In this document: positions 18,445 to 55,171 of the stretch, piece by piece
Position numbering within the stretch: the first letter of the stretch is position 1
Layout of the letters: every line of letters begins with the position of its first letter
NCBI GenBank assembly: GCA_030390025.1
Contig: JASTWF010000322.1
Coordinates: 496,001-552,988, forward strand
DNA length: 56,988 nucleotides
Reading direction: 5' to 3'
DNA from: Squalus acanthias
Taxonomy: Eukaryota
Notes under the pieces: model-generated
Database searches by the model: none
What the model was told of the DNA's origin: nothing
Seen by the model: only the letters and a program-made list of their open reading frames with translations
Translations under genes and position numbers: made by a program

Positions 18445-18669
18445 GAGGTGTGACAAAATGCTGGTCATTTTTTTATTAAAGGCCGAGGTTCGTGGTCAAA
18501 CTTTTGTTGAGTGTTTTGCACATGATCTCCAGGTTGTGAGAACCAGTTATGGTAATGACTGTTTTTTTGTGTTTATTTGTATGAGTTTGTCATGAAGAAA
18601 TGACACACACAGAGTTTGTAAAATAAATAAGTTTTGGTACTCAAAATATACATGTTTGGTGTTTGGAAT

Positions 18670-20302
18670 TGTAGAATTCGCAATTATCGCGATTTCATTT
18701 TAATAAGGAGAAAACACAAAGTTTCGTTCAAAACAGCTTTTATTTCAGCGGAATGCTGTCAGGTTTAAATTGGACACAAGCAGCCTGTAAAATGGCCGCC
18801 GCACCTCGTGACAGAACATTCTAGACTTTTCAACAGGCAGACAAGATGGCGTTCCAATAAACATTTTTGCAGGATCGATAACGATTCAGCACAGTGAAGA
18901 CAATACACAGGACATTATGGGTTTACAGTATAAACATCGATACTGGAATCGGTCTCCCAGGTACAAAGGAAAGCCATCAAGGGCCCATCCAAAGGACATT
19001 AGTATGTAAACTCCCAACGGCTCTACGATGAGAGAGCCGTTAGCAGGTAGTTATACAGGACACTTGGAAGCCCCAAACCCCTCCAGGGGGAACACCGACC
19101 GATTTAACAATGGGAGAAATATTAACAGGTACTCAAACATTCAGGAGTAGCCCCGAAACCCATTAAGGACAGAGATCACCCATACAGGACATTTTGGGCG
19201 CCAAACCGTTAAACAAAAGAATGGACATTGTAGTTGGGCGGGAAACGGAAGAACTGTGCACTATAATTGCAGGCCCAAACCGTCCATTCGCTCTCTTGCT
19301 CTTGGCTCTTGCCTCGTGTTCTTGACTCTTGCCGCTTGTTGCTGTTATCATCGTGGCTGCTCCTGTGTTTTATCCGGTCGATTCGTAACCTCGTGGCTGC
19401 TCCTGTGTAAAAGACTGTTGCAAAGACCTATGTTGGTAGCGGGCAGCGGAACCAAAGGCCCGAGATGAGATGAGATGAGATGAGAGGAGAAGAGAAGAAG
19501 ACCTTATCCATCGCCACGGTCAGTAAATCCCGACCGCGCCTGTAGGTCGATCAGCCAAGTCTTCTCGACAGGAAGTTTTCTTCGTTAAACTTTTAACAAG
19601 ACATATTGCATCAATGATAACTGGACTGTGCAAACACATCGTATCAGCGATATTGACAACGGTGCTCCACCATACCCTGTATCCAACCAACAGAGGTCTT
19701 CACTACAGCGGACGGTCCAGCCGACTGACCGAGCAGCAGAAGCAGTAAACAAGTGGGACCAGGAGATCTCCTGACCAACACGTGGGTGCTGCGGTGAAAA
19801 ACATCCGATCAGCTATTCGGGATTTCTCCGAGTTATTACGAGTGGTGAGCATGAGTCTCGGGATCCTACGAAGCTAGTTTAGGACAGACATTGATAGGGG
19901 AGGGTTTAAAGTTTAAGGATATTTGTAATGTGTGCCCTATTTACGTTGTGCTGGTCGTTCCTCGTTTCCCTAAGAGTGATTATAACTGTTTGTAAGATTG
20001 TACTGTCATTAATCTGTGCATATGACATGTATTTCATAATTTTAAGTATCATGCAATAAAGATTTTCCATTTCGTACCGTTCAAACCAAGTCTACATGAG
20101 TTTTATCTCCATTACTGCTCTCGCATCTAAGTCCAGTGTCTAGAACCGTAAGGGAGAGTGATTCGAACCACTCACAGGGGTGTCTAGTGTTCCCAGACTG
20201 GCTGGAGACCAGGCCTAGACCCGCACTGACATACAGGCTGCACAGAGCCGCGTGAATCTCACAGGCTACGAGACACGCAGGGTCAGGAGAGTATCCCTTA
20301 CA
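18670..20302 (+). repeat. 5' LTR (1633 bp)
   Basis: TGTAGAATTCG...CCCTTACA; near-identical to 29643-31275; TATAAT 19262, AATAAA 20055, (GATGA)n ~19464. Confidence 0.96.
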
Positions 20303-20306
20303 GAAA

Positions 20307-22118
20307 ATGGCGACCGCGGCAGGACACTGGCAGCGAGAGGGTAGTGTGTTAGATTTTGGAATGACTGTACGAAATGTGATGCAGGAAAAGATAGCGGATT
20401 ACGTATTTGGAAAGGTTAATCTAACGAAAAAGTGGATAAGCGAATTGTTAGCGGATAAGAGCCCACTAGAGGCAGCTGAAAGGTGGACGGATAGTAAGGA
20501 GCATAAAAAGGCAGTTGAGAAAGCAGTCTGGCTTATGTGCTACAAAAGGCAGGTTCAGATTTCAAACCAGACCAATACAGCGCTAACCGCTCGAATCAAG
20601 CAGTTAGAGGAGGAAATGGAGGAGAAGGTTTCTGGAGGGGAGGCGCTCATTAAGAGTTTAAATGAGTTACGCCAGGAAAGCCAGGAAGTCTCCAGTTACC
20701 TTAAAACAAGGGTAGAGTATCTCGAGTGCCAGATCACTGAAGCAAAATTAAACGAGAGTAGGATGAAGGAAAGATGTAACCGTCAAGCTGCCCAGATAAG
20801 AACTCAAGAAGAGAGCTTAATGGGGGTTAGGTCGGCGTATAAGTTGGCCCTTGAGGATAAGTTTCAGGGAGCCGACCATAGCGCCTGCGAAAAAGAGATA
20901 GAGAGCCTCAAAAAGGCCGTGAATAATGCGAACGGCATGGTGTGCCTTATTAATCCGTCGGCCCGCCAGCCGCTAGTAACTGAGAGATTTAGAAATTCCC
21001 CACCAAGTAAAGCAGAAGAAGTAGTAGCCAGTGCGCCCTCCGCGCCACCCAGCTATTCAGAAACCTGGGTTAGGGAGGAAGCAACGGAAGAAGCAAAAGA
21101 GCCCGTTGAAAAGGAGGTAGAAAAGGGATCGTTGTATCCAGTAACGGGGATTAAAAGGGGCCCAAGCAGAAACGGTGGGGAAGAACCGGGGGATCTCCTC
21201 GGACAGCTGGTGTTGCCTCACAGTTCACATCAGCTGAGGGCCATGATAAACCACGTAAGGAAGCTGACCGAGATAGACGACCCTTCCGTACATTTCAGGG
21301 AAGTTGAGCAAGCCGCAGCCATCAACGGCTGCGATGATGGGGAGACAGCAAAAATGCTGCTGTTCTCATTAGATAGCTCGGTCCTTCAGTGTCTCTCAGG
21401 CGATAGCAAGAGGGGTAATAAAAGTTATGAGGAATTGAAAAATGAGGTCCTAGAAGTAGTGGGAGCGAACGACGGAGGTCCGTTTGCTAGAGTGGGACAG
21501 ACAGTGCAGATGGAGGGAGAACCCCCGAAGGTTTTTGCCGACAGGCTGTGGCCAGTATATGAGCGCAGCTGTCTAGGTGCGCCCGAGCGCGAAGATGTGG
21601 AAGGCGCCGCTTTAATTCATTGGCTTAGGTGCATAATAGCCAACAGTTTACCAGCCGTTAGAGAGCAGGCAAAAGCCTGGTTCGATCCCAATGACCTCAA
21701 CCTTACGGAAGAGTCGGTCTTGAATCGACTCACGTTAGGTTACCGTAACATAAGGGGTATGACGACACGTCCCTTTAAGGGAAGAGTACATGAGGTACGA
21801 CCCGCAGCCCCGACTCAAAGAGAGTGGCATCAGGAGGGTAATCGCGCCCCACAGGCAAGTAATGCCTGTTACGGGTGTGGGAAGACAGGGCACTGGCGCA
21901 AGCACTGCAGGAACCCTTGGAAGGATTCCAAGGATAAAAATCCCGCGGTCCGAGCCCAGGCGCCTGTCCCGGCTAAGGAAGCAAAGGCACCCACCTCTCC
22001 CGAAGACCTCGAAGCAGTGTTAGGAGTCATGCGCAAGATGGTTTTGAATGCGCGTGGACAGGTGGCGGTCGCAACCGGCCCCGTAGGTGCCGCAGGACCG
22101 TCTAATAGTGCCCCATGA
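20307..22118 (+). CDS. gag: Gag polyprotein (603 aa)
   Basis: N-terminal coiled coil, PSAPPSY late motif, MHR-like QMEGEPPKVFADRL, single CCHC knuckle CYGCGKTGHWRKHC. Confidence 0.92.
   Translation: MATAAGHWQREGSVLDFGMTVRNVMQEKIADYVFGKVNLTKKWISELLADKSPLEAAERWTDSKEHKKAVEKAVWLMCYKRQVQISNQTNTALTARIKQLEEEMEEKVSGGEALIKSLNELRQESQEVSSYLKTRVEYLECQITEAKLNESRMKERCNRQAAQIRTQEESLMGVRSAYKLALEDKFQGADHSACEKEIESLKKAVNNANGMVCLINPSARQPLVTERFRNSPPSKAEEVVASAPSAPPSYSETWVREEATEEAKEPVEKEVEKGSLYPVTGIKRGPSRNGGEEPGDLLGQLVLPHSSHQLRAMINHVRKLTEIDDPSVHFREVEQAAAINGCDDGETAKMLLFSLDSSVLQCLSGDSKRGNKSYEELKNEVLEVVGANDGGPFARVGQTVQMEGEPPKVFADRLWPVYERSCLGAPEREDVEGAALIHWLRCIIANSLPAVREQAKAWFDPNDLNLTEESVLNRLTLGYRNIRGMTTRPFKGRVHEVRPAAPTQREWHQEGNRAPQASNACYGCGKTGHWRKHCRNPWKDSKDKNPAVRAQAPVPAKEAKAPTSPEDLEAVLGVMRKMVLNARGQVAVATGPVGAAGPSNSAP
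20308..20325 (+). other. Primer-binding site, tRNA-Arg(TCG)
   Basis: TGGCGACCGCGGCAGGAC is the reverse complement of GTCCTGCCGCGGTCG-CCA, the 3' end of vertebrate tRNA-Arg(UCG) as recalled. Confidence 0.85.
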
Positions 22119-25100
22119 CTAGAACCAGCACAGCCCGTCTACCTGTGTCCGCTCAGCTATGATGCGTGGAGGCGACCTGTGGTGGAGATGGAGGTAGAGA
22201 AACAAAAGGGCAGTTATTTGTTGGATACGGGAGCTTCTTGCACCATAATCCATACAGATGACCCTTTTGACTCGCCGCTATCTACCAAGGTCCCATTCAC
22301 GCTAGCAGGGTTCACGGGGAAAGAACAGGCTGGCACGTTTTCCCTCCCGTTATCCATTCGGTTAGGAACACTTCGCCTTAAGTGGAAGTGTATACTGATG
22401 GCATGGCAAAAGGGGGGTGGAAGAGGTATTCTCGGGTCCGATCTGCTAGCGGGACACGGGATCCTCGTGGACCTCAGAAATCACTGTCTCTGGGGGGCTA
22501 AAGGTGAAAAAGGCGAGGTAATGGTGATTCAAGGGGAGGAAGAAACAGGGGTCCTGTGTACCGTACAGCCATCCGGAGGCTACGACCTCAGGCTTATGGT
22601 CGCAGATGTCCCAACGGACATGCAAACGTACGTGACAGATAATATGCACGCGTTTGCAACCCACAAGCACGATTGTGGGAGGGTGGTCGGGTTTGAGGTC
22701 AGCGTAGATGGGGACCCCATGACCCGACCCCAAAAGCAGTATAACTTCCCCAAAGAAGCAGAACCCGATATGGAGGCAGCAATGTCTTCCTTGGTGCAGC
22801 AGGGCGTGTTGAGGCCGATAGCCACACACGTGAACTCCCCATTATGGCCGGTTAGGAAGCCGGATAATTCGTGGAGAGCCACGGTGGACTACAGAGTCCT
22901 TAACAGTAACATCCCCGCCTGCGCGCCCACAGTAGCAGCAGTTGCTGACCTAATAGGGAGCATCCCAGCGTCCGCGACCACGTTCACGGTGCTGGATATC
23001 TCGAACGGTTTTTGGTCCATCCCGCTGCGGCGAGAGGACCAGTACAAGTTTGCCTTTACGTTTAAAGGGCAACAGTACACGTGGAACTGCTTGCCACAAG
23101 GTTTCCACAATAGCCCCAGTATTTTTCACCAGTGTATGGCAGGAAGCTTAAAGGAGTTTAGTCAGCCCAATCAGATAGTACAGTATGTGGATGATTTGCT
23201 CCTATTTACGGACTCAAGGGAGGAGCACGGACCACTACTGGACGAGTTATTGGAGCTGTTAGCGAGAAAGGGTTTTAAAGTAAACCCAAAGAAAGCACGT
23301 ATCGGTCAGCAGGAAGTAAAATTCCTGGGACTGACCCTACGCGCTGGGGAAAGAGCCATAGACAAAGCAAGGAGGGAGTCGGTGCAAGAATTACCGATTC
23401 CCAACAACGTAAGGGGTGTGAGGTCCTTCTTGGGACTGACCGGTTACTGCAGGGATTTTATCGAGGATTATGCGGCCACAGCGGCGCCGCTCCTCCGACT
23501 CCTCCATAAGGGAGTAGAGTGGCTTTGGGACGAGGGCTGCCAAGCAGCCTTCGAGAAGTTAAAAAGGGATCTGCAGACCGCGCCAGCCTTAGGGGCCATA
23601 GATGGGGGGAAGGAGTTTTTCCTGGAGGTAGCTGCCAGCGGAGACAGCTTAAGCGCCGTGCTGCTCCAAGAGCGTCACGGCAAGCTGAGGCCGGTTGTCT
23701 ATTCATCCAGGGTATTAACGGATGTGGAGAGAAGTTTTTCCAATTGCGAAAGGCACCTTTTAGCCACGCATTGGGCTGTGAAAAGATCAGCGATCTTCAC
23801 AGGGCTCTCTCCCATCACTCTCCTCACACATCACACACCAACTAAGATGCTTCTGGATGGGAGGATTAAAGACGGGACCGTAAGCAGCGCACGCATTGCG
23901 CGTTGGACCCTTCTTCTCTCCCAGTTGGACATCAGAGTAAAAGGTCTTTGCGAGCCCAGGCTTGCGGCCAATTTGGTATACCCCGGTACAGCCCACCGGT
24001 GTTCGGTGGAAGGGGTGTGGGACGTCAACATAGGTTTACGGGCCGGGATACATCCCACTGGGCGCGAGATTTATGTTGATGGGTCTAGCACAGTATCTGC
24101 TGGCGAGCGACTCACAGGGTGTGGAGTTTATGACCCTGCGGCAGACCTTGCCCTGGCGATCAAGCTCCCTAGCACCATGAGCGCGCAGCAGGCTGAGCTG
24201 TCTGCCGTGGTGTACGTGGTAACCCACCCAGACATTTTCCCAACCCCATACACGATTTGCTCGGACAGTATGTTCACCTGCAATTCGTGTACGGAATACC
24301 TGGCCATTTGGTCCCGCCGTGGATACACCTCCGCGGACGGGCGACCTTTAACGGTAAAGCCCTTGCTGGAGAAGATCTTAGCAGCAGCAGTAGGGGAGGA
24401 AGGGGAGATTTTCATCCATAAGGTGAAAGCTCACTCCTCCACAGAGCCCCGTGGGGAGGGCAACCGGCAGGCGGATGCGCTAGCCAGGGAGGGTGCCCGC
24501 GACGGTACTTTCTGGAACCCCTATAGAACCGGACCCATAGCAGCGGTCCGAGGCGGGGACGGGAATACCGGGAACACCAGGGTAGCATTGCCCCTAGACC
24601 TTAAGACCGTCCAAGCCCAGGATCCCGCCCTAAAAGCAGTCCTAAAAACGATTGCTGAGGGGAGGCAGGTAGAAGGTCCGTACAGTACGGCAACCCTCTC
24701 AGTTAAGGAAGGCATGCTGTTCCGCGAGGAGCAGTGGGTTGTGCCGCAGCAGCACAGGAGGGAATTCCTCCAGTTGGCTCACGAGGGACCAGGGGCAGGG
24801 CACCCCGGGCCCGAGGTTACCTGGCAACGGGTAGAGCAAGCGGGATGGTGGCCAGGGCTCAGGGAACAAGTCCGCGAGTTCTGTGCAAACTGTCTTGTGT
24901 GCGCTGCAAATAACCCAGACCCCCAGAAAAGGAAGGTGCCCATGGGACACGTAAGAAGGGTAGAGGGACCATGGCAGTCGATACAGATCGACTATATAGG
25001 ACCCCTGCCCACCACCCAGGGAGGTTATAAGTACTGCCTCGTCCTGGTGGATGTGTTTTCCAAGTGGGTGGAAGCCTTCCCTTGTCGAACAGCTACGGCA

Positions 25101-26621
25101 CTGGGTACTGCAAAAATCTTGGTCCGGGAAGTGTTCTCGCGGTGGGGACTCCCCCGTTTTGTGGAGTCAGACCAAGGGAGTCATTTCACCGGCCAGGTGA
25201 TGCAGAACACCCTCATGCTTTTGGGCATTGAAGGGAAGTGGCACGTAGCACACAATCCCCAGTCATCCGGGATTGTTGAGCGTATGAACCGGACCCTGAA
25301 GGAGAAATTGAGGAAAGAGACTAGGAACTCGCCCCAAAAATGGGCGGAAGTTCTGCCTTTAGTCCTCATGGGGGTCCGGGCCAGTCAGTCAAAAAGTACG
25401 GGGTACTCCCCGCACGAGGTAATGACCGGCAGGCTCATGCGAACCCCCACCCATGTGCTAGCCCCGGTGCTCACTGAGGGTCAGCTTCAAGAGATCAGCA
25501 GGGACAAGTTCGCCCAAACTCTCTTGGAGCGCCTGAAGCAAGTTTATGAGCAGGCGGCTGGGAACATGGGAAGGCAGCACCAGGGCAATCGCTTGTTGCT
25601 GGAACCCCGCAAAACGCGGGAGTGGGAAGTAGGAGACCAGGTCATGGTCAGAAACTACGCCAGAGTAGGGAGTCTGGAACCACTGTATATGGGACCCTAC
25701 AACATTGTAGACAAGGCAAGTCCCATGGTTTACGCCGTAAAAGTACCTCGGCGCACTAAGTGGTTCCACATAAACCAATGTAAACTGTACCAGCCGGGTG
25801 CGCAAGGGAAAACTACAGGGGTAAATCCCGCCAATGGGAAAACACAGCCCCAGGTAGGACCACAAGGCACACAGGCAGGCGTAGCAGCTTGCATCAGGGG
25901 AAGGGACATCCCGGACGATCATGCAGCGTTTTTCTGGAGTTGGGGGTTAGATGACGAGGACCCCAGGGTACCCTGGTCAGATGAGGATAGTGCAGATGAG
26001 CATAGTGATGATGACGGGTGGTTTCAGAGGAACGGTCTGGGAGGATTGGGGCCGCTAGGTAGAGATCCATACGGGGTGGACACACAAGCTGCAGGTCCCG
26101 ACAGCAGGAGGAAGGAGCTAGAGGAGGCCGGGCCAGCCGCTATGTGGTTCCCAGAGGTGTGGCCGCCCGCTTTGAACGTCCAGTCCTCAGGGGAGGCAGA
26201 GTTCGCGAGTGAAGGGCCGCCTGCTGGGCCGAGCAGGGCGGGGCCCCGAACTGCCAGCCCCGAGGTTAGGGAGGCGGAGTCAGCGGAGGCGGGGCTGGCG
26301 CCTGTGATGGAACCCCAGGTCATCCCGTTGAAGGTCTCGGGACCCGGTCCGTCCGTCACGGAGCCCCCGCCCATAGCAATTCCCCGTAGGTCAAGCAGAG
26401 TACCCCAGCCCAGGAAGATGTGGTCAGGTCCACAGGCTGCCCCAGGGCGTAAGTTTCAGGTTAAGATAACCCGGGTAGAGACAGGCCACATCGAAGCAGT
26501 AACAGGCTGCGGCAGATCAGAGGAAAGGGTCAGCGCAGCAACAGGCTGCGGCAGATCAGAGGGAAGGGTCAGTGCCCTCCCACCGTCGGGAAGAGCTCGC
26601 AGCAGCCTTCTCAGGATTTAA
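22119..26621 (+). CDS. pol: Pol (PR-RT-degenerate RNase H/tether-RNase H-IN plus C-terminal extension), in frame with gag
   Basis: LLDTGAS; LPQGFHNSP and YVDD; FLEVAAS...ERHLLA...LLTHH (degenerate RH); IYVDGSS...AELSA...SDS...HKVKAH...NRQADALA (RH); H-H-CLVC zinc motif; IDYIG/SDQGSHF/VERMN; GPY motif. The frame is open from the gag stop onward. Confidence 0.95.
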   Translation, partial: LEPAQPVYLCPLSYDAWRRPVVEMEVEKQKGSYLLDTGASCTIIHTDDPFDSPLSTKVPFTLAGFTGKEQAGTFSLPLSIRLGTLRLKWKCILMAWQKGGGRGILGSDLLAGHGILVDLRNHCLWGAKGEKGEVMVIQGEEETGVLCTVQPSGGYDLRLMVADVPTDMQTYVTDNMHAFATHKHDCGRVVGFEVSVDGDPMTRPQKQYNFPKEAEPDMEAAMSSLVQQGVLRPIATHVNSPLWPVRKPDNSWRATVDYRVLNSNIPACAPTVAAVADLIGSIPASATTFTVLDISNGFWSIPLRREDQYKFAFTFKGQQYTWNCLPQGFHNSPSIFHQCMAGSLKEFSQPNQIVQYVDDLLLFTDSREEHGPLLDELLELLARKGFKVNPKKARIGQQEVKFLGLTLRAGERAIDKARRESVQELPIPNNVRGVRSFLGLTGYCRDFIEDYAATAAPLLRLLHKGVEWLWDEGCQAAFEKLKRDLQTAPALGAIDGGKEFFLEVAASGDSLSAVLLQERHGKLRPVVYSSRVLTDVERSFSNCERHLLATHWAVKRSAIFTGLSPITLLTHHTPTKMLLDGRIKDGTVSSARIARWTLLLSQLDIRVKGLCEPRLAANLVYPGTAHRCSVEGVWDVNIGLRAGIHPTGREIYVDGSSTVSAGERLTGCGVYDPAADLALAIKLPSTMSAQQAELSAVVYVVTHPDIFPTPYTICSDSMFTCNSCTEYLAIWSRRGYTSADGRPLTVKPLLEKILAAAVGEEGEIFIHKVKAHSSTEPRGEGNRQADALAREGARDGTFWNPYRTGPIAAVRGGDGNTGNTRVALPLDLKTVQAQDPALKAVLKTIAEGRQVEGPYSTATLSVKEGMLFREEQWVVPQQHRREFLQLAHEGPGAGHPGPEVTWQRVEQAGWWPGLREQVREFCANCLVCAANNPDPQKRKVPMGHVRRVEGPWQSIQIDYIGPLPTTQGGYKYCLVLVDVFSKWVEAFPCRTATALGTAKILVREVFSRWGLPRFVESDQGSHFTGQVMQNTLMLLGIEGKWHVAHNPQSSGIVERMNRTLKEKLRKETRNSPQKWAEVLPLVLMGVRASQSKSTGYSPHEVMTGRLMRTPTHVLAPVLTEGQLQEISRDKFAQTLLERLKQVYEQAAGNMGRQHQGNRLLLEPRKTREWEVGDQVMVRNYARVGSLEPLYMGPYNIVDKASPMVYAVKVPRRTKWFHINQCKLYQPGAQGKTTGVNPANGKTQPQVGPQGTQAGVAACIRGRDIPDDHAAFFWSWGLDDEDPRVPWSDEDSADEHSDDDGWFQRNGLGGLGPLGRDPYGVDTQAAGPDSRRKELEEAGPAAMWFPEVWPPALNVQSSGEAEFASEGPPAGPSRAGPRTASPEVREAESAEAGLAPVMEPQVIPLKVSGPGPSVTEPPPIAIPRRSSRVPQPRKMWSGPQAAPGRKFQVKITRVETGHIEAVTGCGRSEERVSAATGCGRSEGRVSALPPSGRARSSLLRI

Positions 26622-26905
26622 AGGGGCCGCCCTGAGAACGGGCGGCATTGTAAAGTTATTAGTTTAAGGTGATAAGTATTAGTTTAAAGTTTTAAGTAGT
26701 TTTAATAAGGTTAAGTTTGTAGTGTTTTTAACAGATGACGACATAATGATGGGAGTTTTAAGGCTAGGTTTAGAGGAAGTCTATTTAGCAAACGTTGAAG
26801 TTTACGTGAGGCGAGGTCAGGGGACCCGCTCACCCTTCACAAAAGCCAGAGACTTTTTGCGAGGCTGGCTACCTCATTCTATCTGATCACAGGAACCAAG
26901 GAAGG

Positions 26906-29257
26906 ATGGAACGACTTCTAGTTTTGCTCGTGGCAATCGGATGTGGATTGGCCTATCGGGGCCTCACCAAGGATGTCGTGGTGTTTGGATGTTCCGGGGA
27001 CACGGCCCCCATCGCGGTGGATGGGACCGGAAGACGGAAGGCAGAAGGGACCAGCACCTATTTCCACAAGGGAAGGTGGCCAGGATGGCTGGGAACGAAC
27101 TCAACGGAGTATTCCAGCACATCGGGGTTCGCCTACAGAGAGACTTCTTTAATGTGCCCCAAAGTACGGATCATCGCACCCAGGATCAGCGTCACCGTCG
27201 GCAAACGGATTTGTTTGACCTGCAGTGGGAATGTCCCATTGAGCCGATGGTGGTGGCTGCGAAAGCTGAGCAAAACTATGAGGAACTCTTCGGTTGAGTG
27301 GGAGCGACTGGGTAATAATACCCATCGGACAATTACGGGGACAGATGGACAAGTGAAAGTCTGTTGGGACAAATGGTGGGAACCGGATGAGGGGATTTAT
27401 GTTTGTATGTGGGGGTCAAAGTACGTTTGCCCCAAAGGCATCTCCATATTCTTTATTAACCAGTGGCAGGATAACGGACAGGGGATGAGGTGGGATGCGA
27501 GCACCAGGGGGTGCGGAGCCCCATACTCTCCGATCCCAGTAAATGCCACTGAGCTCATTACGCGCCCACGCAAAGCCCCGCCCACGATTCCGGTAGTTCT
27601 AACTGAGGAAGAAGGGTGCCCTAAAACTAGTAAGGGACCCGGGAACGGTTTGGTACTGGTCCCCACAGACCAGATACTATTTCAGGGAGTGCATTACGCG
27701 GTGGCCTCGGTGATTTTAAATCTCACTGAGGTACGGTTACCAGAGTGGTGCCCCAAAAAGACGGAACAGTTGTACCAGGTCCTGTTGACCAAGATGTTCA
27801 GGCAATTTTACGAGTTTGATTTTGCAGAAATTGATAAGACAAGTTTATACACCGCACCGCAGGAAGTTTTGGACCAAGTAGGGAGGCAAAGAAGGGGTTT
27901 GGTGAACGATGCGTTCACTGCTTTTAATACAGGGACATCTGTGGTCAACGCTCTAGACAGTGTGGAGCTGCAGACCCAGATTAATGGTTTAAAAACACAG
28001 TTAAAGGATATTCTTACAGATGAGAATAAAGTGGTAGGGTCGGGTCTGCACGAGGACCAAGCCATGACACTACACTTAAAGGAAATCATAGCAGAGCTGG
28101 AGAAACATGCGCGTACGGTAAATGCCCTGATTAGGGAAGATCGGAATGCATCCGATCAGGCTGCGCAGAACGAGGTGTGCGTGCTTTACGGGGCGTGGTT
28201 ACTGGGCGAGTTCCGCAGTAATTTGGAGGATTTAAAACAAGGTTTGGTCCCGTCCTGGATAAGTAACAAACACCTGCGGGCGCTCCACCCTTTTCAGAAC
28301 GCATTAAGTCCGTGCCAGCTCAGGCTAGCTTCAGAAGCTTACCCAGTCCCCGTGGACTGCGGACGTTCAAACCATACTATTATGGGAATAGTATTACGCA
28401 TGCCGGTTTTGGGCAACACAGCAAAGCCCGCCCCGGTGTATCGGGTAGAGAACATTGGTGTCATTCAGGGGGGAGCCCACATTCGTTATGCAGCGGTTCC
28501 ACCTTACGTCATCCGCTGGGAGCAAACGATGACAGGTACAGATCTCTCTGGTTGTCGTGGCAGGGGAGCACACATAATACTGTGCCCCCAGCACTTGAAT
28601 GCCTTTTTAACACCACAGTGCGGGTTCAGAACGGCTGGCGCCAAGTCCATGAATTGCACCATGGAGGCAATGGCACAAGATCATGTGCCTCCGCAGGTAG
28701 CATACATCGGGGGTGGAACATATTGTGTTACCACTGCAGCGCAACACTACCAGCATGGAAACCGTAGCCGGTGTCCGGTGAGTGACAGCAGTTTCTGTTT
28801 TAAACCCAGGGCTGAAGTTCAAGTAGCACAACAGCGAATTATCCCAATCCCTGAACCATCCACTGTTCATCTCACAGTAAAAGAGAATTTTACCGACTTG
28901 CAGCGATTTGTCACACATTTTGGGTACCTCATTCCCCCTCTCCCCGAGCATTTAACCAAACTTCTGAAAGCCGTCGCGGTGTCACAAAAGCATTTCTATA
29001 CATTAGAACAGAAAACCGTCGAGATAGGTACAGACATTTTGGACATAGTGGTTCCACCGTGGTGGAATCTGTTCACGAATATTGAAGTGCCCTCATGGGT
29101 CAGAATAGCCTCCCACATTTTAGTCGTCTGTCAAGTGTTTATTGTAGTATACCTTTTGTTCATACATTGTAAAAGAGACAAGCGCCTCACCAAGCATGAG
29201 AACACGGGAGAGTGGCGAGAACGTTACGTGCGCGTGCACGATGAGAGCGCAGTGTAA
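26906..29257 (+). CDS. env: Env glycoprotein (783 aa): signal peptide, Ig-like domain, furin site, F-protein-like fusion subunit, TM
   Basis: MERLLVLLVAIGCGLA signal; C106...W...DEGIYVC167; RQRR|GLVNDAF (aa 327-330); heptad repeat; Cys-rich block; TM IASHILVVCQVFIVVYLLFIHC; splice acceptor ctgatcacag at 26892. Confidence 0.9.
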   Translation: MERLLVLLVAIGCGLAYRGLTKDVVVFGCSGDTAPIAVDGTGRRKAEGTSTYFHKGRWPGWLGTNSTEYSSTSGFAYRETSLMCPKVRIIAPRISVTVGKRICLTCSGNVPLSRWWWLRKLSKTMRNSSVEWERLGNNTHRTITGTDGQVKVCWDKWWEPDEGIYVCMWGSKYVCPKGISIFFINQWQDNGQGMRWDASTRGCGAPYSPIPVNATELITRPRKAPPTIPVVLTEEEGCPKTSKGPGNGLVLVPTDQILFQGVHYAVASVILNLTEVRLPEWCPKKTEQLYQVLLTKMFRQFYEFDFAEIDKTSLYTAPQEVLDQVGRQRRGLVNDAFTAFNTGTSVVNALDSVELQTQINGLKTQLKDILTDENKVVGSGLHEDQAMTLHLKEIIAELEKHARTVNALIREDRNASDQAAQNEVCVLYGAWLLGEFRSNLEDLKQGLVPSWISNKHLRALHPFQNALSPCQLRLASEAYPVPVDCGRSNHTIMGIVLRMPVLGNTAKPAPVYRVENIGVIQGGAHIRYAAVPPYVIRWEQTMTGTDLSGCRGRGAHIILCPQHLNAFLTPQCGFRTAGAKSMNCTMEAMAQDHVPPQVAYIGGGTYCVTTAAQHYQHGNRSRCPVSDSSFCFKPRAEVQVAQQRIIPIPEPSTVHLTVKENFTDLQRFVTHFGYLIPPLPEHLTKLLKAVAVSQKHFYTLEQKTVEIGTDILDIVVPPWWNLFTNIEVPSWVRIASHILVVCQVFIVVYLLFIHCKRDKRLTKHENTGEWRERYVRVHDESAV

Positions 29258-29630
29258 TGGGAAAATGGCGTCACTCCCGCTCGCCACGTGCGCCGCGGAA
29301 GTTTGTACTCATTGTAAATACGTTGGAAACTCGACATGTTTAAGAGTTGGGTTTTGTTTTTCCTTCCCTTGAATAAAAGACAAATATACAGGTGATGCGT
29401 GAGGTATCGGCCTGGTTACGCCGGGAAGGAAAACAGGTGGTGTAAGTTTAAGGGCAAATGATGCCTACGGTGATATAAAATGTGATTTTTCTTGGGAAAT
29501 GAGGACGACACAGAGACCCTAGTGAAGTTAAAATTTATGGGATTAATTTACTGGATTCGGAGTGAAATCGAGATAAGATTGCTCACCACTGAGATTTTTT
29601 TTTGATACGATAAGCGGAGTTATTCGCATC

Positions 29631-29642
29631 AACAGGAGGGAC
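29631..29642 (+). other. Polypurine tract
   Basis: aacaggagggac immediately before the 3' LTR TG. Confidence 0.75.
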
Positions 29643-31275
29643 TGTAGAATTCGCAATTATCGCGATTTCATTTTAATAAGGAGAAAACACAAAGTTTCGT
29701 TCAAAACAGCTTTTATTTCAGCGGAATGCTGTCAGGTTTAAATTGGACACAAGCAGCCTGTAAAATGGCCGCCGCACCTCGTGACAGAACATTCTAGACT
29801 TTTCAACAGGCAGACAAGATGGCGTTCCAATAAACATTTTTGCAGGATCGATAACGATTCAGCACAGTGAAGACAATACACAGGACATTATGGGTTTACA
29901 GTATAAACATCGATACTGGAATCGGTCTCCCAGGTACAAAGGAAAGCCATCAAGGGCCCATCCAAAGGACATTAGTATGTAAACTCCCAACGGCTCTACG
30001 ATGAGAGAGCCGTTAGCAGGTAGTTATACAGGACACTTGGAAGCCCCAAACCCCTCCAGGGGGAACACCGACCGATTTAACAATGGGAGAAATATTAACA
30101 GGTACTCAAACATTCAGGAGTAGCCCCGAAACCCATTAAGGACAGAGATCACCCATACAGGACATTTTGGGCGCCAAACCGTTAAACAAAAGAATGGACA
30201 TTGTAGTTGGGCGGGAAACGGAAGAACTGTGCACTATAATTGCAGGCCCAAACCGTCCATTCGCTCTCTTGCTCTTGGCTCTTGCCTCGTGTTCTTGACT
30301 CTTGCCGCTTGTTGCTGTTATCATCGTGGCTGCTCCTGTGTTTTATCCGGTCGATTCGTAACCTCGTGGCTGCTCCTGTGTAAAAGACTGTTGCAAAGAC
30401 CTATGTTGGTAGCGGGCAGCGGAACCAAAGGCCCGAGATGAGATGAGATGAGATGAGAGGAGAAGAGAAGAAGACCTTATCCATCGCCACGGTCAGTAAA
30501 TCCCGACCGCGCCTGTAGGTCGATCAGCCAAGTCTTCTCGACAGGAAGTTTTCTTCGTTAAACTTTTAACAAGACATATTGCATCAATGATAACTGGACT
30601 GTGCAAACACATCGTATCAGCGATATTGACAACGGTGCTCCACCATACCTTGTATCCAACCAACAGAGGTCTTCACTACAGCGGACGGTCCAGCCGACTG
30701 ACCGAGCAGCAGAAGCAGTAAACAAGTGGGACCAGGAGATCTCCTGACCAACACGTGGGTGCTGCGGTGAAAAACATCCGATCAGCTATTCGGGATTTCT
30801 CCGAGTTATTACGAGTGGTGAGCATGAGTCTCGAGGTCCTACGAAGCTAGTTTAGGATAGACATTGATAGGGGAGGGTTTAAAGTTTAAGGATATTTGTA
30901 ATGTGTGCCCTATTTACGTTGTGCTGGTCGTTCCTCGTTTCCCTAAGAGTGATTATAACCGTTTGTAAGATTGTACTGTCATTAATCTGTGCATATGACA
31001 TGTATTTCATAATTTTAAGTATCATGCAATAAAGATTTTCCATTTCGTACCGTTCAAACCAAGTCTACATGAGTTTTATCTCCATTACTGCTCTCGCATC
31101 TAAGTCCAGTGTCTAGAACCGTAAGGGAGAGTGATTCGAACCACTCACAGGGGTGTCTAGTGTTCCCAGACTGGCTGGAGACCAGGCCTAGACCCGCACT
31201 GACATACAGGCTGCACAGAGCCGCGTGAATCTCACAGGCTACGAGACACGCAGGGTCAGGAGAGTATCCCTTACA
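29643..31275 (+). repeat. 3' LTR (1633 bp)
   Basis: Same length as the 5' LTR; followed by TSD GAAT; AATAAA at 31028. Confidence 0.96.
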
Positions 31276-31367
31276 GAATCATTGGTGCCTTGGCCGGCTT
31301 AGGGGTTGCGTGTTGGGTTCATTCATGCTGTTCTCAATGGCAGAAGCCATTTCCACAACAGGGGCCC

Positions 31368-32528
31368 CTAGAAGCGGCTTGCTATCAGCCGCTGACGGAC
31401 GGCCCTTGCAGTTTCACCATTGTGGGCCGCCCTCACGCCTTGGTGCTGCTGCTGATCATCCTCCTCGTCCTCTTCCTCCTCTTCCTCCTCCTCCTCTGGT
31501 GGTGTTCCAAGGCCTGGTGGCATTGGCTGGGTCCTGAGGATTGCCATGTTATGCAGCATGCAGCACACAACTACGATGTTGGAAACTCGCTCAGGCGAGT
31601 ACTGCAGGGCTCCTCCAGAATGGTCGAGACAGCGGAACCGTTGCTTGAGCACGCCGATTGTGTGCTCCACGATGTTCCTGGTAGCTTGATGGCTCTCGTT
31701 GTACCGCAGCTCAGCAGGGGTGTTGGGCGTACGGAGCGGTGTCATCAGCCACGTGCTCAGTGGATACCCCTTGTCCCCGAGAAGCCAACCAACTGGCTGA
31801 TGCGGTGCCTCGAAAAGTTCTGCCACAGTAGTCTGGCGCAGGATGAAAGCATCGTGGCAGCTGCCAGGATAGTGGGCATTGACAGCGAGTATCAGCTGTC
31901 TGTGGTCACAGACCAACTGAACATTCAAGGAATGGAACCCCTTTCTGTTCCGGAAATCCTCGGCATTCTCATGCGGAGCACGCAAAGCCACATGCGTGCA
32001 GTCAATGGCGCCCTGCACCATGGGGAAGCCCGCTATCCTCGCAAAGCCCAGAGCGCGGTCACGCTGCTTGTCTGGGGTCATGGGGAAAGAGATGAACTCT
32101 CGTCTCCTTTTAAAGAGGGCATTTGTGACCTTCCGGATGCAGCAATGCACCGCGAACTGGGAGATATTGGCGATGTCCCCAACAGCAGATTGAAATGAGC
32201 CAGTAGCATAAAAGTTCAGAGCCACTGTGACCTTCACTGCCACCGACAGAGACGTCCTGGACCTCAGTTGAGGCTGCAGATCTGGCTGCAGCAGGTGGCA
32301 GAGCTCAGTGACCACCTCCTTGCTGAAGCGCAGCCTTCGCAGACACTGCTCCTCAGACATATGAATGTAGGAGAGCTGTTCACGATATACCCTGGGAGGG
32401 TAAGCTCTCCTGTACAGACGCCTGTTGGCCCTCCTCCGTCTGGCCATCATTGCCACTCTCTCTCTGCGTCTCTGTCTCCTCCGATTCAGCTGGCGCAGGA
32501 CGACGCCCCCCATCAGTGCAGCCCCCAT
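31368..32528 (-). CDS. Harbinger DDE transposase (HARBI1-like, 386 aa from the first ATG), intact
   Basis: GAIDCTHV, RNRKGFHSLNVQLVCD, PGSCHDAFIL, LLGDKGYP, YNESHQATRNIVEHTIGVLKQRFRCL, CCMLHN; no stops. Confidence 0.95.
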   Translation of the reverse strand: MGAALMGGVVLRQLNRRRQRRRERVAMMARRRRANRRLYRRAYPPRVYREQLSYIHMSEEQCLRRLRFSKEVVTELCHLLQPDLQPQLRSRTSLSVAVKVTVALNFYATGSFQSAVGDIANISQFAVHCCIRKVTNALFKRRREFISFPMTPDKQRDRALGFARIAGFPMVQGAIDCTHVALRAPHENAEDFRNRKGFHSLNVQLVCDHRQLILAVNAHYPGSCHDAFILRQTTVAELFEAPHQPVGWLLGDKGYPLSTWLMTPLRTPNTPAELRYNESHQATRNIVEHTIGVLKQRFRCLDHSGGALQYSPERVSNIVVVCCMLHNMAILRTQPMPPGLGTPPEEEEEEEEEDEEDDQQQHQGVRAAHNGETARAVRQRLIASRF

Positions 32529-33354
32529 ATCTCTTAGCAAGCAAAGTTATGAAGGCCAGAAACCAAAGTACCAGCGAAGTTAGGATGAGTAGCCAAAACT
32601 ACCTCACACAGCGTTGACTCAATGCAGAAGTCTCTCTTTCTCTCTCTCCGAATCTCTCTCTCTCTCTCAGAACGAGTGGTGCAAAAATGTCAACCACAGA
32701 GAAAGACAGGAAGAGGCCCCCTTTAAATAGCGCCCCCCCCAGCCCCACAGCGATTGTTAGCGTTCCACTCTACCGGTCGTTGGATGCGCCAGGCGGTAAG
32801 GATGGGGGCGCCACTGAAATTCTGCTCCGGGGCGCCACAAGGGCGTTGCACTCTCGTATGACGTCACAATCTGCACGCGCAGGAGATCGCGGCGATAAAG
32901 TTTAGCGCCGCCGCAAAATGTCTAGTTAAGTTCGCAAGCGGCGCAAACATCGCTGCGCCCGGGCGCTAGCTGCTTTGCGCCCCATTAGCGCCCTCTTAAG
33001 GCGCTAACGGGTGGCGCAACCAACTGACTGGGGCGGGCTGGGGTCGTGTCATCCACTTTTCGTGTTATCCACCCGACTGCAATTGGATGTGGGAGATTGA
33101 TGCAATTTTCACCTAATTGGGCAATTGAGTTCCAGCATGTGGGAACCCATGACCCAATGAGTGTTTTCAGTCTGAAAGTCGCCTCTGATGATGTCATCAT
33201 TGCTGCTGCATTGAAGGTCTTCAGAGACTGCCTGGCCTTTGCTGTGAGAGGACCTGGCAAAATATGAGAGAGAGAGAGAGAGAGAATGAGAATTTTTTTT
33301 GCCAGCCAGCCCCAGTCACTGATAGTCAGCCCAGCCACTGATAGTCAGCTATCC

Positions 33355-35970: not shown

Positions 35971-36291
35971 TTCTGTAATAAAGTTGAACGAGAATAGGAC
36001 AGGGCTCAAGGTCGTGGAGCTGCAAGTAGTTAGGTTATTTTCCTGTTAATCATTACTCGATCGCAACGCCAGCCTCACTCTTAATCACTTTGTGCAACGA
36101 GATATTCATCTCAAGGTCGGTCCCAATAAAGGTCTTTTGAACCATTCGATCTCGTTCTTCCAGAACGCCAGCCCAGCCCACGCCCCGTTTCAATAAACAG
36201 CCCATGAGGTACAGCACTTCCTCCTAACCCAGCAGAACAGTTTGCAGCACAGAAAGCTGCCATTCGGCCCTTTGGGTCTGTGGTGGCTCCT

Positions 36292-39200
36292 CATAGCCCT
36301 GTATCAATCCCCAAAATAACCCCGCTACCCCGCTCTCTCCCCATAGCCCTGTATCAATCCCCAAACTAATCCCACTGCCCCGCTCTCTCCCCATAGCCCT
36401 GTATCAATCCCCAAAATAACCCCGCTACCCCGCTCTCTCCCCATAGCCCTGTATCAATCCCCAAACTAATCCCACTGCCCCGCTCTCTCCTCATAGCCCT
36501 GTATCAATCCCCAAACTAATCCCACTGCCCCGCTCTCTCCCCATAGCCCTGTATCAATCCCCAAACTAATTCCACTGCCCCGCTCTCGCCCCATAGCCCT
36601 GTATCAATCCCCAAACTAATCCCACTGCCCCGCTCTCTCCTCATAGCCCTGTATCAATCCCCAAACTAATCCCACTGCCCCGCTCTCTCCCCATAGCCCT
36701 GTATCAATCCCCAAACTAATCCCACTGCCCCGCTCTCTCCCCATAGCCCTGTATCAACCCCGAAATAATCCCACTGCCCCGCTCTCTCCCCATAGCCCTG
36801 TATCAATCCCCAAACTAATTCCACTGCCCCGCTCTCTCCCCATAGCCCTGTATCAACACCGAAATAATCCCACTGCCCCGCTCTCTCCCCATAGCCCTGT
36901 ATCAACCCCGAAATAATCCCACTGCCCCGCTCTCTCCCCATAGCCCTGTATCAACCCCGAAATAATCCCACTGCCCCGCTCTCTCCCCATAGCCCTGTAT
37001 CAACCCCGAAATAATCCCACTGCCCCGCTCTCTCCTCATAGCCCTGTATCAACCCCGAAATAATCCCACTGCCCCGCTCTCTCCCCACAGCCCTGTATCA
37101 ATCCCCAAACTAATCCCACTGCCCCGCTCTCTCCTCATAGCCCTGTATCAATCCCCAAACTAATCCCACTGCCCCGCTCTCTCCCCATAGCCCTGTATCA
37201 ATCCCCAAACTAATCCCACTGCCCCGCTCTCTCCCCATAGCCCTGTATCAATCCCCAAACTAATCCCACTGACCCGCACTCTCCCCATAGCCCTGTATCA
37301 ATCCCAAACTAATCCCACTGCCCCGCTCTCTCCACATAGCCCTGTATCAATCCCAAACTAATCCCACTGCCCCGCTCTCTCCCCATAGCCCTGTATCAAT
37401 CTCCAAACTAATCCCACTGCCCCTCTCTCCCCATAGCCCTGTATCAATCTCCAAACTAATCCCACTGCCCCTCTCTCCCCATAGCCCTGTATCAATCCCC
37501 AAAATAATCCCACTACCCCACTCCCTCCCCATAGCCCTGTATCAATCCCCAAACTAATCCCACTGCCCCGCTCTCTCCCCATAGACCTGTATCAATCCCC
37601 AAACTAATCCCACTGCCCCGCTCTCTCCCCACAGCCCTGTATCAATCCCCAAACTAATCCCACTGCCCCGCTCTCTACACATAGCCCTGTATCAATCACC
37701 AAACAAATCCCACTGCCCCGCTCTCTCCCCAAAGCCCTGTATCAATCCCCAAACTAATCCCACTGCCCCGCTCTCTCCCCATAGCCCTGTATCAATCTCC
37801 AACCTAATCCCACTGCCCCGCTCTCCCCCCATAGCCCTGCATCAATCCCCAAACTAATCCCACTGCCCCGCTCTCCCCCATAGCCCTGTATCAATCCCCA
37901 AACTAATCTCACTGCCCCGCTCGCCCCCCATAGCCCTGTATCAATCCCCAAACTAATCCCACTGCCCCGCTCTCTCCTCATAGCCCTGTATCAATCCCCA
38001 AACTAATACCACTGCCCCGCTCTCTCCCCATAGCCCTGTATCAATCCCCAAACTTACCCCACTGCCCCGCTCTCTCCCCCATAGCCCTGTATCAATCCCC
38101 AAACTAATCCCACTGCCCCGCTCTCTCCCCATAGCCCTGTATCAATCCCCAAACTTATCCCACTGCCACGATCTCTCCCCATAGCCCTGTATCAATCCCC
38201 AAACTAATCCCACTGCCACGCTCTCTCCCCATAGCCCTGTATCAATCCCCAAACTAATCCCACTGCCCCGCTCTCTCCCCATAGCCCTGTATCAACCCCA
38301 AACTAATCTCACTGCCCCGCTCTCTCCCCATAGCCCTGTATCAACCCCAAACTAATCTCACTGCCCCGCTCTCTCTCCATAGCCCTCTATCAATCCCCAA
38401 ACTAATCCCACTGCCCCGCTCTCTCCCCATAGACCTGTATCAATCCCCAAACTAATCCCACTGCCCCGCTCTCTCCCCATAGCCCTGTATCAATCCCCAA
38501 ACTAATCCCACTGCCCCGCTCTCTACACATAGCCCTGTATCAATCCCCAAACTAATCCCACTGCCCCGCTCTCTCCCCATAGCCCTGTATCAATCCCCAA
38601 ACTAATCCCACTGCCCCGCTCTCTCCCCATAGCCCTGTATCAATCTCCAACCTAATCCCACTGCCCCGCTCTCCCCCCATAGCCCTGCATCAATCCCCAA
38701 ACTAATCCCACTGCCCCGCTCTCTCCCCATAGCCCTGTATCAATCCCCAAACTAATCCCACTGCCCCGCTCTCTCCCCATAGCCCTGTATCAATCCCCAA
38801 ACTAATCCCACTGCCCCGCTCTCTCCTCATAGCCCTGTATCAATCCCCAAACTAATCCCACTGCCCCGCTCTCTCCCCATAGCCCTGTATCAATCCCCAA
38901 ACTAATCCCACTGCCCCGCTCTCTCCCCCATAGCCCTGTATCAATCCCCAAACTAATCCCACTGCCCCGCTCTCTCCCCATAGCCCTGTATCAATCCCCA
39001 AACTTATCCCACTGCCACGATCTCTCCCCATAGCCCTGTATCAATCCCCAAACTAATCCCACTGCCACGCTCTCTCCCCATAGCCCTGTATCAATCCCCA
39101 AACTAATCTCACTGCCCCGCTCTCTCCCCATAGCAATGTATCAATCCCCAAACTAATCCCACTGCCCCGCGCTCTCCCCATAGCCCTGTATCAATCCCCA

Positions 39201-48569: not shown

Positions 48570-48573
48570 GAAA

Positions 48574-54922: not shown

Positions 54923-55171
54923 GTTTTAAGTTTTAAGTTTATAGTTCAAGGTTAAGTTTATAGTTTTTTTGATAAGGTTAAGATTGTAGTGTTTTTAACA
55001 GAAAACGATAAAATGATGGGAGCTTTAAAGATAGGTTTAGTTAAAGTTTATTCAGCGAACGTGGAAGTTTACGTGAGGCGAGGTCAGGGGACCCGCTCAC
55101 CCTTCACAGAAGCCAGAGACTCTTGCGAGGCTGGCTACCTCATTCTATCTGATCACAGGAACCAAGGAAGG

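Follow-up and report, generated by a model that had tools for sequence, protein, structure and literature searches.

The window analyzed here is a stretch of 56,988 nucleotides from Squalus acanthias (NCBI GenBank assembly GCA_030390025.1, contig JASTWF010000322.1, positions 496,001 to 552,988 of the forward strand), and all coordinates below count from its first nucleotide. It holds a complete long terminal repeat (LTR) element of 12.6 kb on the plus strand (18670-31275), arranged in the order LTR-gag-pol-env-LTR, and the subject of this report is the env gene of that element. We consider it likely that the provirus carrying this gene is an endogenous retrovirus (ERV) that integrated recently and is apparently intact, that the gene product is an F-type class I fusion glycoprotein, and that the element belongs to a deep dual-RNase-H lineage, distinct from the lokiretroviruses, that is found in elasmobranchs, coelacanth and frogs. 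An earlier note on this DNA, made from the sequence alone, had described the fusion subunit encoded at 27884..29200 as resembling paramyxovirus or pneumovirus F and not a retroviral transmembrane subunit (TM), and had taken this to imply that a retroelement and negative-strand RNA viruses had exchanged glycoproteins. The element, its target-site duplications and a second copy lie at the following positions.

18666-18669, plus strand: target-site duplication GAAT, 5' copy (4 bp, direct reading)
18670-20302, plus strand: 5' LTR, 1633 nt with TG...CA ends (self-BLAST, ends inspected)
20307-22118, plus strand: gag, with an N-terminal coiled coil, one CCHC knuckle and a TGA stop at 22116-22118
20308-20325, plus strand: primer-binding site TGGCGACCGCGGCAGGAC, 18 nt, 5 nt past the 5' LTR
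22119-26621, plus strand: pol, encoding protease, reverse transcriptase (RT), tether (degenerate RNase H), RNase H and integrase, followed by some 270 further residues
26906-29257, plus strand: env, 783 aa, with ATG at 26906 and stop at 29255-29257, between pol and the 3' LTR
29643-31275, plus strand: 3' LTR (self-BLAST, ends inspected)
31276-31279, plus strand: target-site duplication GAAT, 3' copy (direct reading)
46907-56988, plus strand: second copy of the element, 16 kb away, with 87-95% DNA identity, cut inside env by the end of the window

The two LTRs agree at 1628 positions over 1633 nt, with 5 mismatches and 0 gaps, and the provirus is apparently young, recently integrated and intact. 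Its primer-binding site, which we take to match the 3' end of tRNA-Arg, recurs identically in the second copy (48575-48592), where 0.01 matches would be expected by chance. The CCHC knuckle of gag is matched weakly by Pfam (zf-CCHC, E 0.33), and gag and pol share a frame across the TGA stop of gag, an arrangement suggestive of readthrough. The pol product is matched by RVT_1 (9.8e-36), RT_RNaseH_2 (2.1e-21), RNase_H (2e-19), Integrase_H2C2 (1.6e-17) and rve (5.6e-15). It carries a dual RNase H, with RT_RNaseH_2 and RT_RNaseH at residues 470-602 and RNase_H at 650-793; this combination of tether and acquired RNase H is shared with the lokiretroviruses and is present in canonical retroviruses as well. 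For the C-terminal tail behind the integrase (25800-26618), Pfam gives no family. Between the two copies, this tail (25800-26621, about 270 residues) has 73.8% amino acid identity compared with 98% for the first 1200 residues of Pol, and it could be disordered or a separate or accessory reading frame. The list of open reading frames (ORFs) contains no plus-strand frame of at least 80 aa between the end of env (29257) and the 3' LTR (29643).

In the second copy, gag is open, and env is open and 97.5% identical over residues 1-605; the pol frame shifts near 53963-54024, after which the tail is open in another frame. The ratio of non-synonymous to synonymous substitution (dN/dS) between the copies is 0.084 for env (605 codons; 57.5 synonymous and 17.5 non-synonymous differences), 0.085 for pol (1200 codons) and 0.217 for gag (610 codons). 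Env is under purifying selection, and its low ratio indicates a lineage that spread, in the manner of a virus, under selection for a functional Env. In 14 public sequencing runs (7 studies, 6 coded organisms), 51% or more of the sampled env words are present. Contigs from four of these runs span the whole element (all 30 bins) in many variants, with contig depths that cannot rank the parts of the element. No RNA run is listed among the 14, and the contigs of those four, guessed to be RNA runs, hold no joint between leader and env, a result that says nothing for or against expression.

The layout of Env was derived from its sequence, an alignment of 22 family members and predicted structures, for which confidence is given as the predicted local distance difference test (pLDDT). 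The segments run as follows, with heptad repeats A, B and C abbreviated as HRA, HRB and HRC.

26906-26956, plus strand: putative signal peptide, residues 1-17 (hydrophobic N-terminus, model helix 2-14)
26957-27610, plus strand: N-terminal variable domain, residues 18-235, upstream of all parts that align with F
27611-27883, plus strand: F2-like segment, residues 236-326, a predicted beta hairpin and HRC-like helix (pLDDT 81-93)
27884-27895, plus strand: furin-type cleavage site RQRR, residues 327-330 (R..R column conserved in the family consensus)
27896-27961, plus strand: putative fusion peptide, residues 331-352, placed by its position directly past the cleavage site and its moderately apolar composition
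27962-28237, plus strand: HRA, residues 353-444, modeled as a long central helix (alignment to the HRA of post-fusion F)
28238-28855, plus strand: core of F domains III, I and II, residues 445-650 (pLDDT mostly 75-94; F matches from Foldseek and VIA)
28946-29038, plus strand: HRB helix, residues 681-711 (low-to-middling model confidence)
29099-29170, plus strand: membrane anchor, residues 732-755 (strongest hydrophobic 19-mers begin at 732-739)
29171-29257, plus strand: cytoplasmic tail of 28 residues, and stop codon

Env contains two sites of the form RX[KR]R, namely RQRR at residue 327 and RDKR at residue 757, the second of which lies behind the membrane anchor. Past RQRR come GLVNDAFTAFNTGTSVVNALDS, a long heptad stretch and the motifs GTDLSGC, IILCPQ, NCTME and PQVAYIGGGTYC. 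All of the elements that the earlier note had quoted are thus present, and the roughly 450 aa it assigned to the subunit are 453 residues. The peptide directly after the cleavage site, which the note had called apolar, stands in the right position and is only moderately apolar, with a mean Kyte-Doolittle value of 0.68 over 20 residues. The start of the span proposed there coincides with RQRR. The F-like part, on the other hand, really begins at about Env residue 236 (27611), and the proposed end at 29200 falls just beyond the membrane anchor, within the cytoplasmic tail of a frame that ends at 29257. The CX6CC motif of gamma-type TM was correctly reported as missing, since a scan of all 783 Env residues returns 0 matches for CX6CC, and also 0 for CX6C. 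The protein has 10 N-glycosylation sequons, and the three cysteines singled out in the note, C550, C560 and C584 (C254, C264 and C288 of A1, a profile of the Env family), occupy nearly invariant columns of the 22-sequence alignment.

The N-terminal domain (residues 18-235) is modeled with a pLDDT of 25-54 and with strands only at 102-169, and its sole Pfam match is a weak one to Ig_3 (E 0.093). It is variable or absent among relatives and is presumed to be a receptor-binding module, possibly Ig-like. In the F2-like segment the model places strands at 249-260 and 263-272 and a helix at 284-306, and the segment's CP..GP..GL motif is conserved across the Env family. Beyond the cleavage site the model shows helices at 330-373 and 383-444, and the ectodomain downstream of the site, about 400 residues in all, includes a large beta-rich core.

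Two AlphaFold models, one of full-length Env and one of the C-terminal (F1) subunit with a short lead (residues 297-783), were searched against solved structures. The full-length model has a mean pLDDT of 59.9, with residues 236-310 and 400-650 confident, and the rows listed for it by both Foldseek and VIA are F proteins throughout. They include F of human parainfluenza virus 3 (hPIV3; 1ztm_B, Foldseek 3.8e-12 over 506 columns, VIA Z 13.0 over 335 residues), post-fusion F of Langya virus (7.4e-10; Z 12.7 over 330 residues, root-mean-square deviation (rmsd) 5.6), F of Newcastle disease virus (NDV; 4.7e-9; Z 12.1, 315 residues, rmsd 5.6), post-fusion Nipah F (Z 12.1, 292 residues) and post-fusion F of respiratory syncytial virus (RSV; 4.7e-10; Z 11.2, 354 residues). 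VIA gives Z scores of 13.0, 12.7, 12.5 and 12.1 for alignments of 315-366 residues, and in total 237 chains fall at E<=1e-3 in Foldseek and 168 chains at Z>=8 in VIA. The VIA alignments are collinear and without a large insert, with model residue 243-245 falling on F residue 26-38, and the alignment with post-fusion Langya F reaches Env residue 715-721. From this collinearity, Env 236-326 is read as the equivalent of F2, RQRR as the F2/F1 cleavage site and residues 331 to about 720 as the F1 ectodomain.

The F1-only model (pLDDT 67, core confident) gives much weaker matches. Foldseek returns 53 chains at E<=1e-3, led by foamy virus Env (8rm1_D, 9.6e-7) and F of human metapneumovirus (hMPV; 3.7e-6), followed by F of measles virus, RSV, parainfluenza virus 5 (PIV5), Nipah virus and Hendra virus. 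A Foldseek-independent search of 48161 representative chains likewise ranks foamy virus Env first (Z 8.8, 270 residues) and hMPV F second (Z 8.5, 258 residues), with RSV, NDV and measles F next; unrelated rows at similar Z span only a 65-residue helix. Residues 208-355 of this model align to measles F 289-436, which is a regional correspondence only. The earlier note had proposed AlphaFold modeling with Foldseek, and in these monomer models the F proteins of RSV and PIV5 that it named are indeed among the matches. A language-model search with Env agrees with the F-type assignment, since its 30 matches (top score 0.94) include 10 Fusion_gly and 13 Baculo_F clusters. On the evidence of these models, the predicted fold of Env is the three-domain F ectodomain (domains I, II and III with repeats A and B), and the predicted resemblance to F is well beyond chance. 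Its modeled core is the same three-domain core as that of paramyxovirus and pneumovirus F, foamy virus Env and baculovirus F. The resemblance claimed by the note is therefore borne out at the level of predicted fold (hPIV3 F, 3.8e-12 and Z 13.0).

Such an architecture suggests how the protein would work. The signal peptide would direct the precursor into the endoplasmic reticulum, where it presumably trimerizes, and a furin-like protease would cut after RQRR. The N-terminal subunit would then comprise the variable domain of about 215 residues, as the presumed receptor binder, followed by the F2-like hairpin and helix. The C-terminal subunit would comprise the fusion peptide, HRA, domains III, I and II, HRB, the anchor and the 28-residue tail. 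Upon triggering, HRA may extend into a long coiled coil with insertion of the fusion peptide, and HRB may pack back onto HRA and so draw the two membranes together.

An exhaustive HMMER search yields 50 relatives of Env. Of 20 that were looked up, 16 are named, and these comprise 10 elasmobranch, 2 coelacanth and 4 anuran proteins. Word-indexed homolog searches return 2 and 12 proteins, all from elasmobranchs or frogs and without the Env of snakehead retrovirus (SnRV), from an index of limited sensitivity. Among the relatives, the shark 'host' proteins P0039, P0003 and P0009 carry an Env-family fragment fused to F-box, cadherin and zinc finger sequences visible in the alignment, and they are probably chimeric gene models annotated across ERV remnants. 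The nearest Pol proteins are those of frog and coelacanth (43-45% identity), followed by class I ERV-like Pol at 30-35% and then by Ty3/gypsy. Profile scores for the window Pol are near-equal for Ty3 (247 bits), the RT of murine leukemia virus type (240) and foamy virus protease-RT (218). In a 58-row RT tree the dual-RNase-H rows form one clade, with a value of 100 in the Shimodaira-Hasegawa-like approximate likelihood ratio test (SH-aLRT), and in a 24-row tree built under a simpler model the base is a polytomy.

Hart et al. 1996 is said to be the SnRV genome paper, and the SnRV-like clade was reportedly defined by Hayward et al. 2015. Viral contigs were scanned with the Pol alignment, which gave 24 loci. 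The best of these viral reference loci (L001, 10688 nt, E 2e-97) is SnRV, as shown by an RT identical to the printed SnRV row and by the 205-codon 3' ORF described in PMC12193657. RT identity to the window is 37.5% for SnRV compared with 32-36% for 13 other retrovirus-like loci, and SnRV is the closest named exogenous relative of the element. By eye, the RNase H stretch YLA(I/V)W(S/K)RRG occurs among the printed rows in the window and SnRV only. Agreement with the printed SnRV row, as opposed to the lokiretrovirus, foamy virus, ERV-L or epsilonretrovirus rows, is also seen in two sequences of the window, its LDISNGFWSIPL block and the RNase H stretch YLAIWSRRG..ADG. Both Gag proteins have about 620 residues, an N-terminal coiled coil and one CCHC, and they are collinear in BLASTP with E 7e-5 over the coiled coil; gag and pol also share one frame in both. 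The 18-base primer-binding site of the window is absent from the SnRV locus and from the other 23 viral loci, and the 205-codon 3' ORF of SnRV, which overlaps the end of its env, has no counterpart of at least 80 aa in the window. SnRV-like ERVs are reported from the coelacanth, as its major ERV category, and from amphibians and elephant shark (PMC4977317, PMC4422223), a host range that fits the hosts of the window lineage. Our reading is that the element represents a deep non-loki lineage of dual-RNase-H retroviruses, provisionally placed as SnRV-like in a broad sense.

The Env of SnRV is larger, with 1042 residues (L001:6407-9535), about 420 of them before the putative F-like part, and a long tail. 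In hhalign, profile A1 aligns with SnRV Env 431-739 at a probability of 69.7% (E 4.2e-5, 267 collinear columns), across the F2-like CP..GP..G start, the polybasic site, C..(Y/M)G, G.(L/V)P and the strand before the cysteine-rich core. The language-model neighbors of SnRV Env 420-900 are Baculo_F and Fusion_gly clusters (0.90), as for the window Env, and a Pfam search of SnRV Env finds nothing relevant. Homology between SnRV Env and the window Env family is a lead and not a proof. The literature searches found no paper calling SnRV or epsilonretrovirus Env F-like.

The full-length model was also compared by Foldseek with predicted viral structures (BFVD). An arlivirus-like glycoprotein ranks first (E 5.3e-14) and the Env of walleye epidermal hyperplasia virus 1 (WEHV-1; Q9WHI8, E 3.6e-13) second, followed by baculovirus F at rank 8 (1.4e-11), the first paramyxovirus F0 at rank 13 (2.2e-10), the Env of walleye dermal sarcoma virus (WDSV; A4GTG3, 6.8e-9) at rank 20 and feline foamy virus gp130 (7.5e-5) at rank 43. 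Glycoproteins of arli-, chu- and lispiviruses and baculovirus F thus score equal to or above paramyxovirus F0. Together with the foamy virus and epsilonretrovirus matches, they indicate an F-type fold that is old, widespread and carried by several retrovirus groups. The opposition drawn in the earlier note between F and retroviral TM is not supported, because the best solved match of the F1-only model is a foamy virus Env and an epsilonretrovirus Env ranks second among predicted structures. The window Env is a retroviral envelope of a type other than gamma, from which no recent exchange with RNA viruses follows.

Comparison with individual envelope groups locates the window protein among them. 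Paramyxovirus F depends on a separate attachment protein, and the window provirus encodes none. With paramyxovirus and pneumovirus F (hPIV3 1ztm, Langya 8tve/8tvg, NDV 1g5g/3maw, RSV 6apb/3rki), the whole modeled ectodomain is collinear in the order F2, cleavage site, fusion peptide, HRA, domains III, I and II, and HRB. The overall match to these proteins reaches Z 11-13 and E 1e-9 to 4e-12, yet there is no profile match, and the window Env departs from these proteins in its additional N-terminal domain and in being the product of a provirus and not of the genome of a negative-strand RNA virus. The F-type fold is also that of baculovirus F (Ld130) and errantivirus Env (PF12259), whose carriers are insect viruses and Ty3/gypsy elements, and PF12259 does not match the window Env. 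The epsilonretroviruses WEHV-1 and WDSV are fish retroviruses, and their Env proteins, matched by the full-length model at ranks 2 and 20, are much longer (1317 and 1159 residues) and have low TM-scores of 0.13-0.25, with predicted models on both sides. Foamy virus Env (8rm1) is a retroviral Env with a fusion core of F domains I-III. In that protein the receptor-binding domain is inserted between elements of domain III, and a leader peptide carries a second furin site (PMC11468914). The window Env differs in that its additional domain precedes, on the N-terminal side, an uninterrupted F2-like part and its other RX[KR]R site occurs only behind the anchor.

The concept of an F-like retroviral Env is already known, having been published for lokiretroviruses in 2020 (PMC7947760) and for foamy viruses in 2024 (PMC11468914). 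In the first of these papers, Wang and Han 2020 matched lokiretrovirus Env to PF00523 at E 2.2e-7 and discuss a common origin with the F proteins of Mononegavirales, precisely the idea of the earlier note, which Wang and Han 2022 (PMC9040795) took up again. For F, coronavirus spike and foamy virus Env, a subclass Ib core is described by Fernandez et al. 2024 (PMC11468914), and Viro3D follows the F-type fold across viral realms (PMC12583693). Chary and Hayashi report F-type Env in invertebrate Ty3/gypsy elements (10.1101/2023.10.26.564294), and a preprint places epsilonretrovirus Env outside the beta/gamma classification (10.1101/2021.11.05.467493).

Several results weigh against an F-type Env in an SnRV-like lineage. 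The Pfam Fusion_gly search proposed in the earlier note gives no match, as the window Env has neither a PF00523 nor a PF12259 match at E<=1, and 0 of 18 relatives match PF00523 at E<=0.1; one of the 18 (P0039) has a Baculo_F match that is sub-threshold (E 1.1e-3, 18.1 bits compared with a cut-off of 24.1). A phmmer search of Env against PDB sequences finds no F protein among its 5 matches (E 0.88-3.4, Ig-like or designed proteins), nor does the 22-sequence family profile, whose 5 matches (E>=0.019) are coiled-coil proteins. Both AlphaFold models are monomers built from shallow alignments (22 and 28 rows), and in the full-length model the N-terminal 235 residues and the HRB region have low confidence. 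Foldseek gives modest TM-scores, of 0.27-0.31 when scaled by query length and of 0.42-0.54 when scaled by target, the rmsd is large in several structural-match rows, and sequence identity in the structural alignments to F is 7-15%. As to lineage, the trees contain no foamy virus, lokiretrovirus, betaretrovirus or lentivirus rows. The frog and coelacanth rows and the window clade branch in the 58-row tree before a group (SH-aLRT 95) of SnRV, an unnamed clade and gamma- and epsilon-like rows. In the 24-row tree a clade of window and SnRV is 10.5 log-likelihood units worse, although the approximately unbiased test does not reject it (p-AU 0.199). Pairwise BLASTP between the window family and SnRV Env is weak, with E 0.047-0.29.

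The element might instead be a lokiretrovirus, in the sense of Wang and Han 2020, in a cartilaginous fish. This was the initial reading and was dropped on the published RT, RNase H and Env rows; we now regard it as unlikely. All comparisons with lokiretroviruses were made by eye from printed text. Lokiretroviruses have the same architecture, with dual RNase H and an F-like Env, and that Env shares with the window protein a signal peptide, an F2-like part, a cleavage site of the form RX(K/R)R, a fusion peptide, a coiled coil and a membrane anchor (PMC7947760). The Env of Loki-Xtr in the supplement of that paper has short motifs in common with it (F2-like start, HRA, strand before the cysteine-rich core), and a sister relationship is compatible with trees that hold no lokiretrovirus rows. 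In the printed alignment, however, all 6 lokiretrovirus RT rows inspected read PFGY, whereas the window, its frog and coelacanth relatives and SnRV read PQGF; the 6 rows also differ from the window at other RT positions, and the lokiretrovirus RNase H rows are without the W(S/K)RRG..ADG stretch common to the window and SnRV. The closest Latimeria Pol (P0073, 44%) visibly differs from the printed Loki-Lch consensus Pol. The survey reports 0 lokiretroviruses in 6 screened chondrichthyan genomes, two of those species holding window Env relatives. Likeness to Mononegavirales F, moreover, is visible in the window Env by fold only and in lokiretrovirus Env also by Pfam (PF00523 at 2.2e-7, compared with no match for the window), and Loki-Xtr Env has about 110 residues before the cleavage site compared with 326 in the window Env (PMC7947760).

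The exchange proposed in the earlier note, in which a retroelement captured a paramyxovirus or pneumovirus F gene directly from a negative-strand RNA virus, is very improbable on the present evidence. Paramyxovirus F proteins are the top solved matches of the full-length model, and a published proposal (PMC7947760) gives lokiretrovirus Env and Mononegavirales F a common origin, but the many paramyxovirus F entries in the PDB bias the top ranks, and the arli-, chu- and lispivirus glycoproteins, baculovirus F, and epsilonretrovirus and foamy virus Env match at similar or better E. No sequence similarity to F is detectable, and identity in the structural alignments is 7-15%. The Env family travels with its Pol lineage through elasmobranchs, coelacanth and frogs, which fits an old association and not a recent capture, and nothing points to paramyxoviruses or pneumoviruses as a specific or recent donor. 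What the window holds is an old and widespread retroviral envelope type with no donor indicated. Least probable of all is a domesticated, syncytin-like host gene that is no longer viral, although the intact ORF, the strong purifying selection and the annotation of relatives as host 'uncharacterized proteins' are what such a gene would show. The provirus around the env frame is complete, its LTRs are nearly identical and its gag and pol are open; a second copy is located 16 kb off, and contigs of the whole element occur in many variants in public runs. Constraint on pol equals that on env (0.085 compared with 0.084), as expected under viral replication. The preferred reading is therefore still a viral F-type Env of a non-loki lineage.

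Viewed against the published record, what is new is a distinct F-type Env family that is invisible to Pfam, carries about 215 extra N-terminal residues and belongs to a non-loki lineage in hosts reported to be free of lokiretroviruses. Scyliorhinus torazame and Chiloscyllium punctatum, both lokiretrovirus-negative in the published survey (PMC7947760), hold F-type Env relatives, which means that an RT-based lokiretrovirus screen misses a second lineage with F-type Env. The finding bears on the origin of retroviral envelopes, since the F fold now appears in a third pol lineage, after the lokiretroviruses (by sequence) and foamy viruses (by structure), with a receptor-binding module added in a different way. 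Two copies with open env frames under purifying selection make the family a practical subject for expression, fusion and structural work.

A wider proposal, which we put forward tentatively and would not yet favor, is that early-branching retroviruses originally, or at any rate predominantly, had an F-type (subclass Ib) Env, which would then be no peculiarity of lokiretroviruses and foamy viruses. SnRV, the epsilonretroviruses (WDSV and WEHV), foamy viruses, lokiretroviruses and the window lineage would then share homologous cores, and the short gamma/beta-type TM would be a later replacement. Under this proposal the N-terminal receptor-binding additions would vary, from none in lokiretroviruses (about 110 residues before cleavage) to about 215 residues in the window Env and about 420 in SnRV, and the window would supply an intact, young and constrained example from a lineage that is neither lokiretrovirus nor foamy virus. 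A modular pattern of N-terminal additions was proposed by Fernandez et al. (PMC11468914). Should the SnRV and epsilonretrovirus leads hold, the F-type core would be widely shared by retroviruses of fish and amphibians, and 'glycoprotein exchange with RNA viruses' would become a question of deep common ancestry.

The remainder of the window contains several features outside the provirus. About 90 bases past the 3' LTR, on the minus strand (31368-32546), lies an ORF of 392 aa whose product has a transposase domain of Harbinger/PIF type (DDE_Tnp_4, E 5.7e-42). The 10 kb at 36000-46000 have an extreme GC skew (-0.63 to -0.70) at about 55% GC and are probably a strand-biased satellite or simple repeat. 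From 1379 to about 4000 runs a long array of degenerate short tandem units with a spacing of 8-14 bases and more than 170 overlapping 300-nt copies. An inverted repeat pair of about 346 bases (32655-33000 and 10887-11232, 82.7% identity) is unrelated to the provirus.

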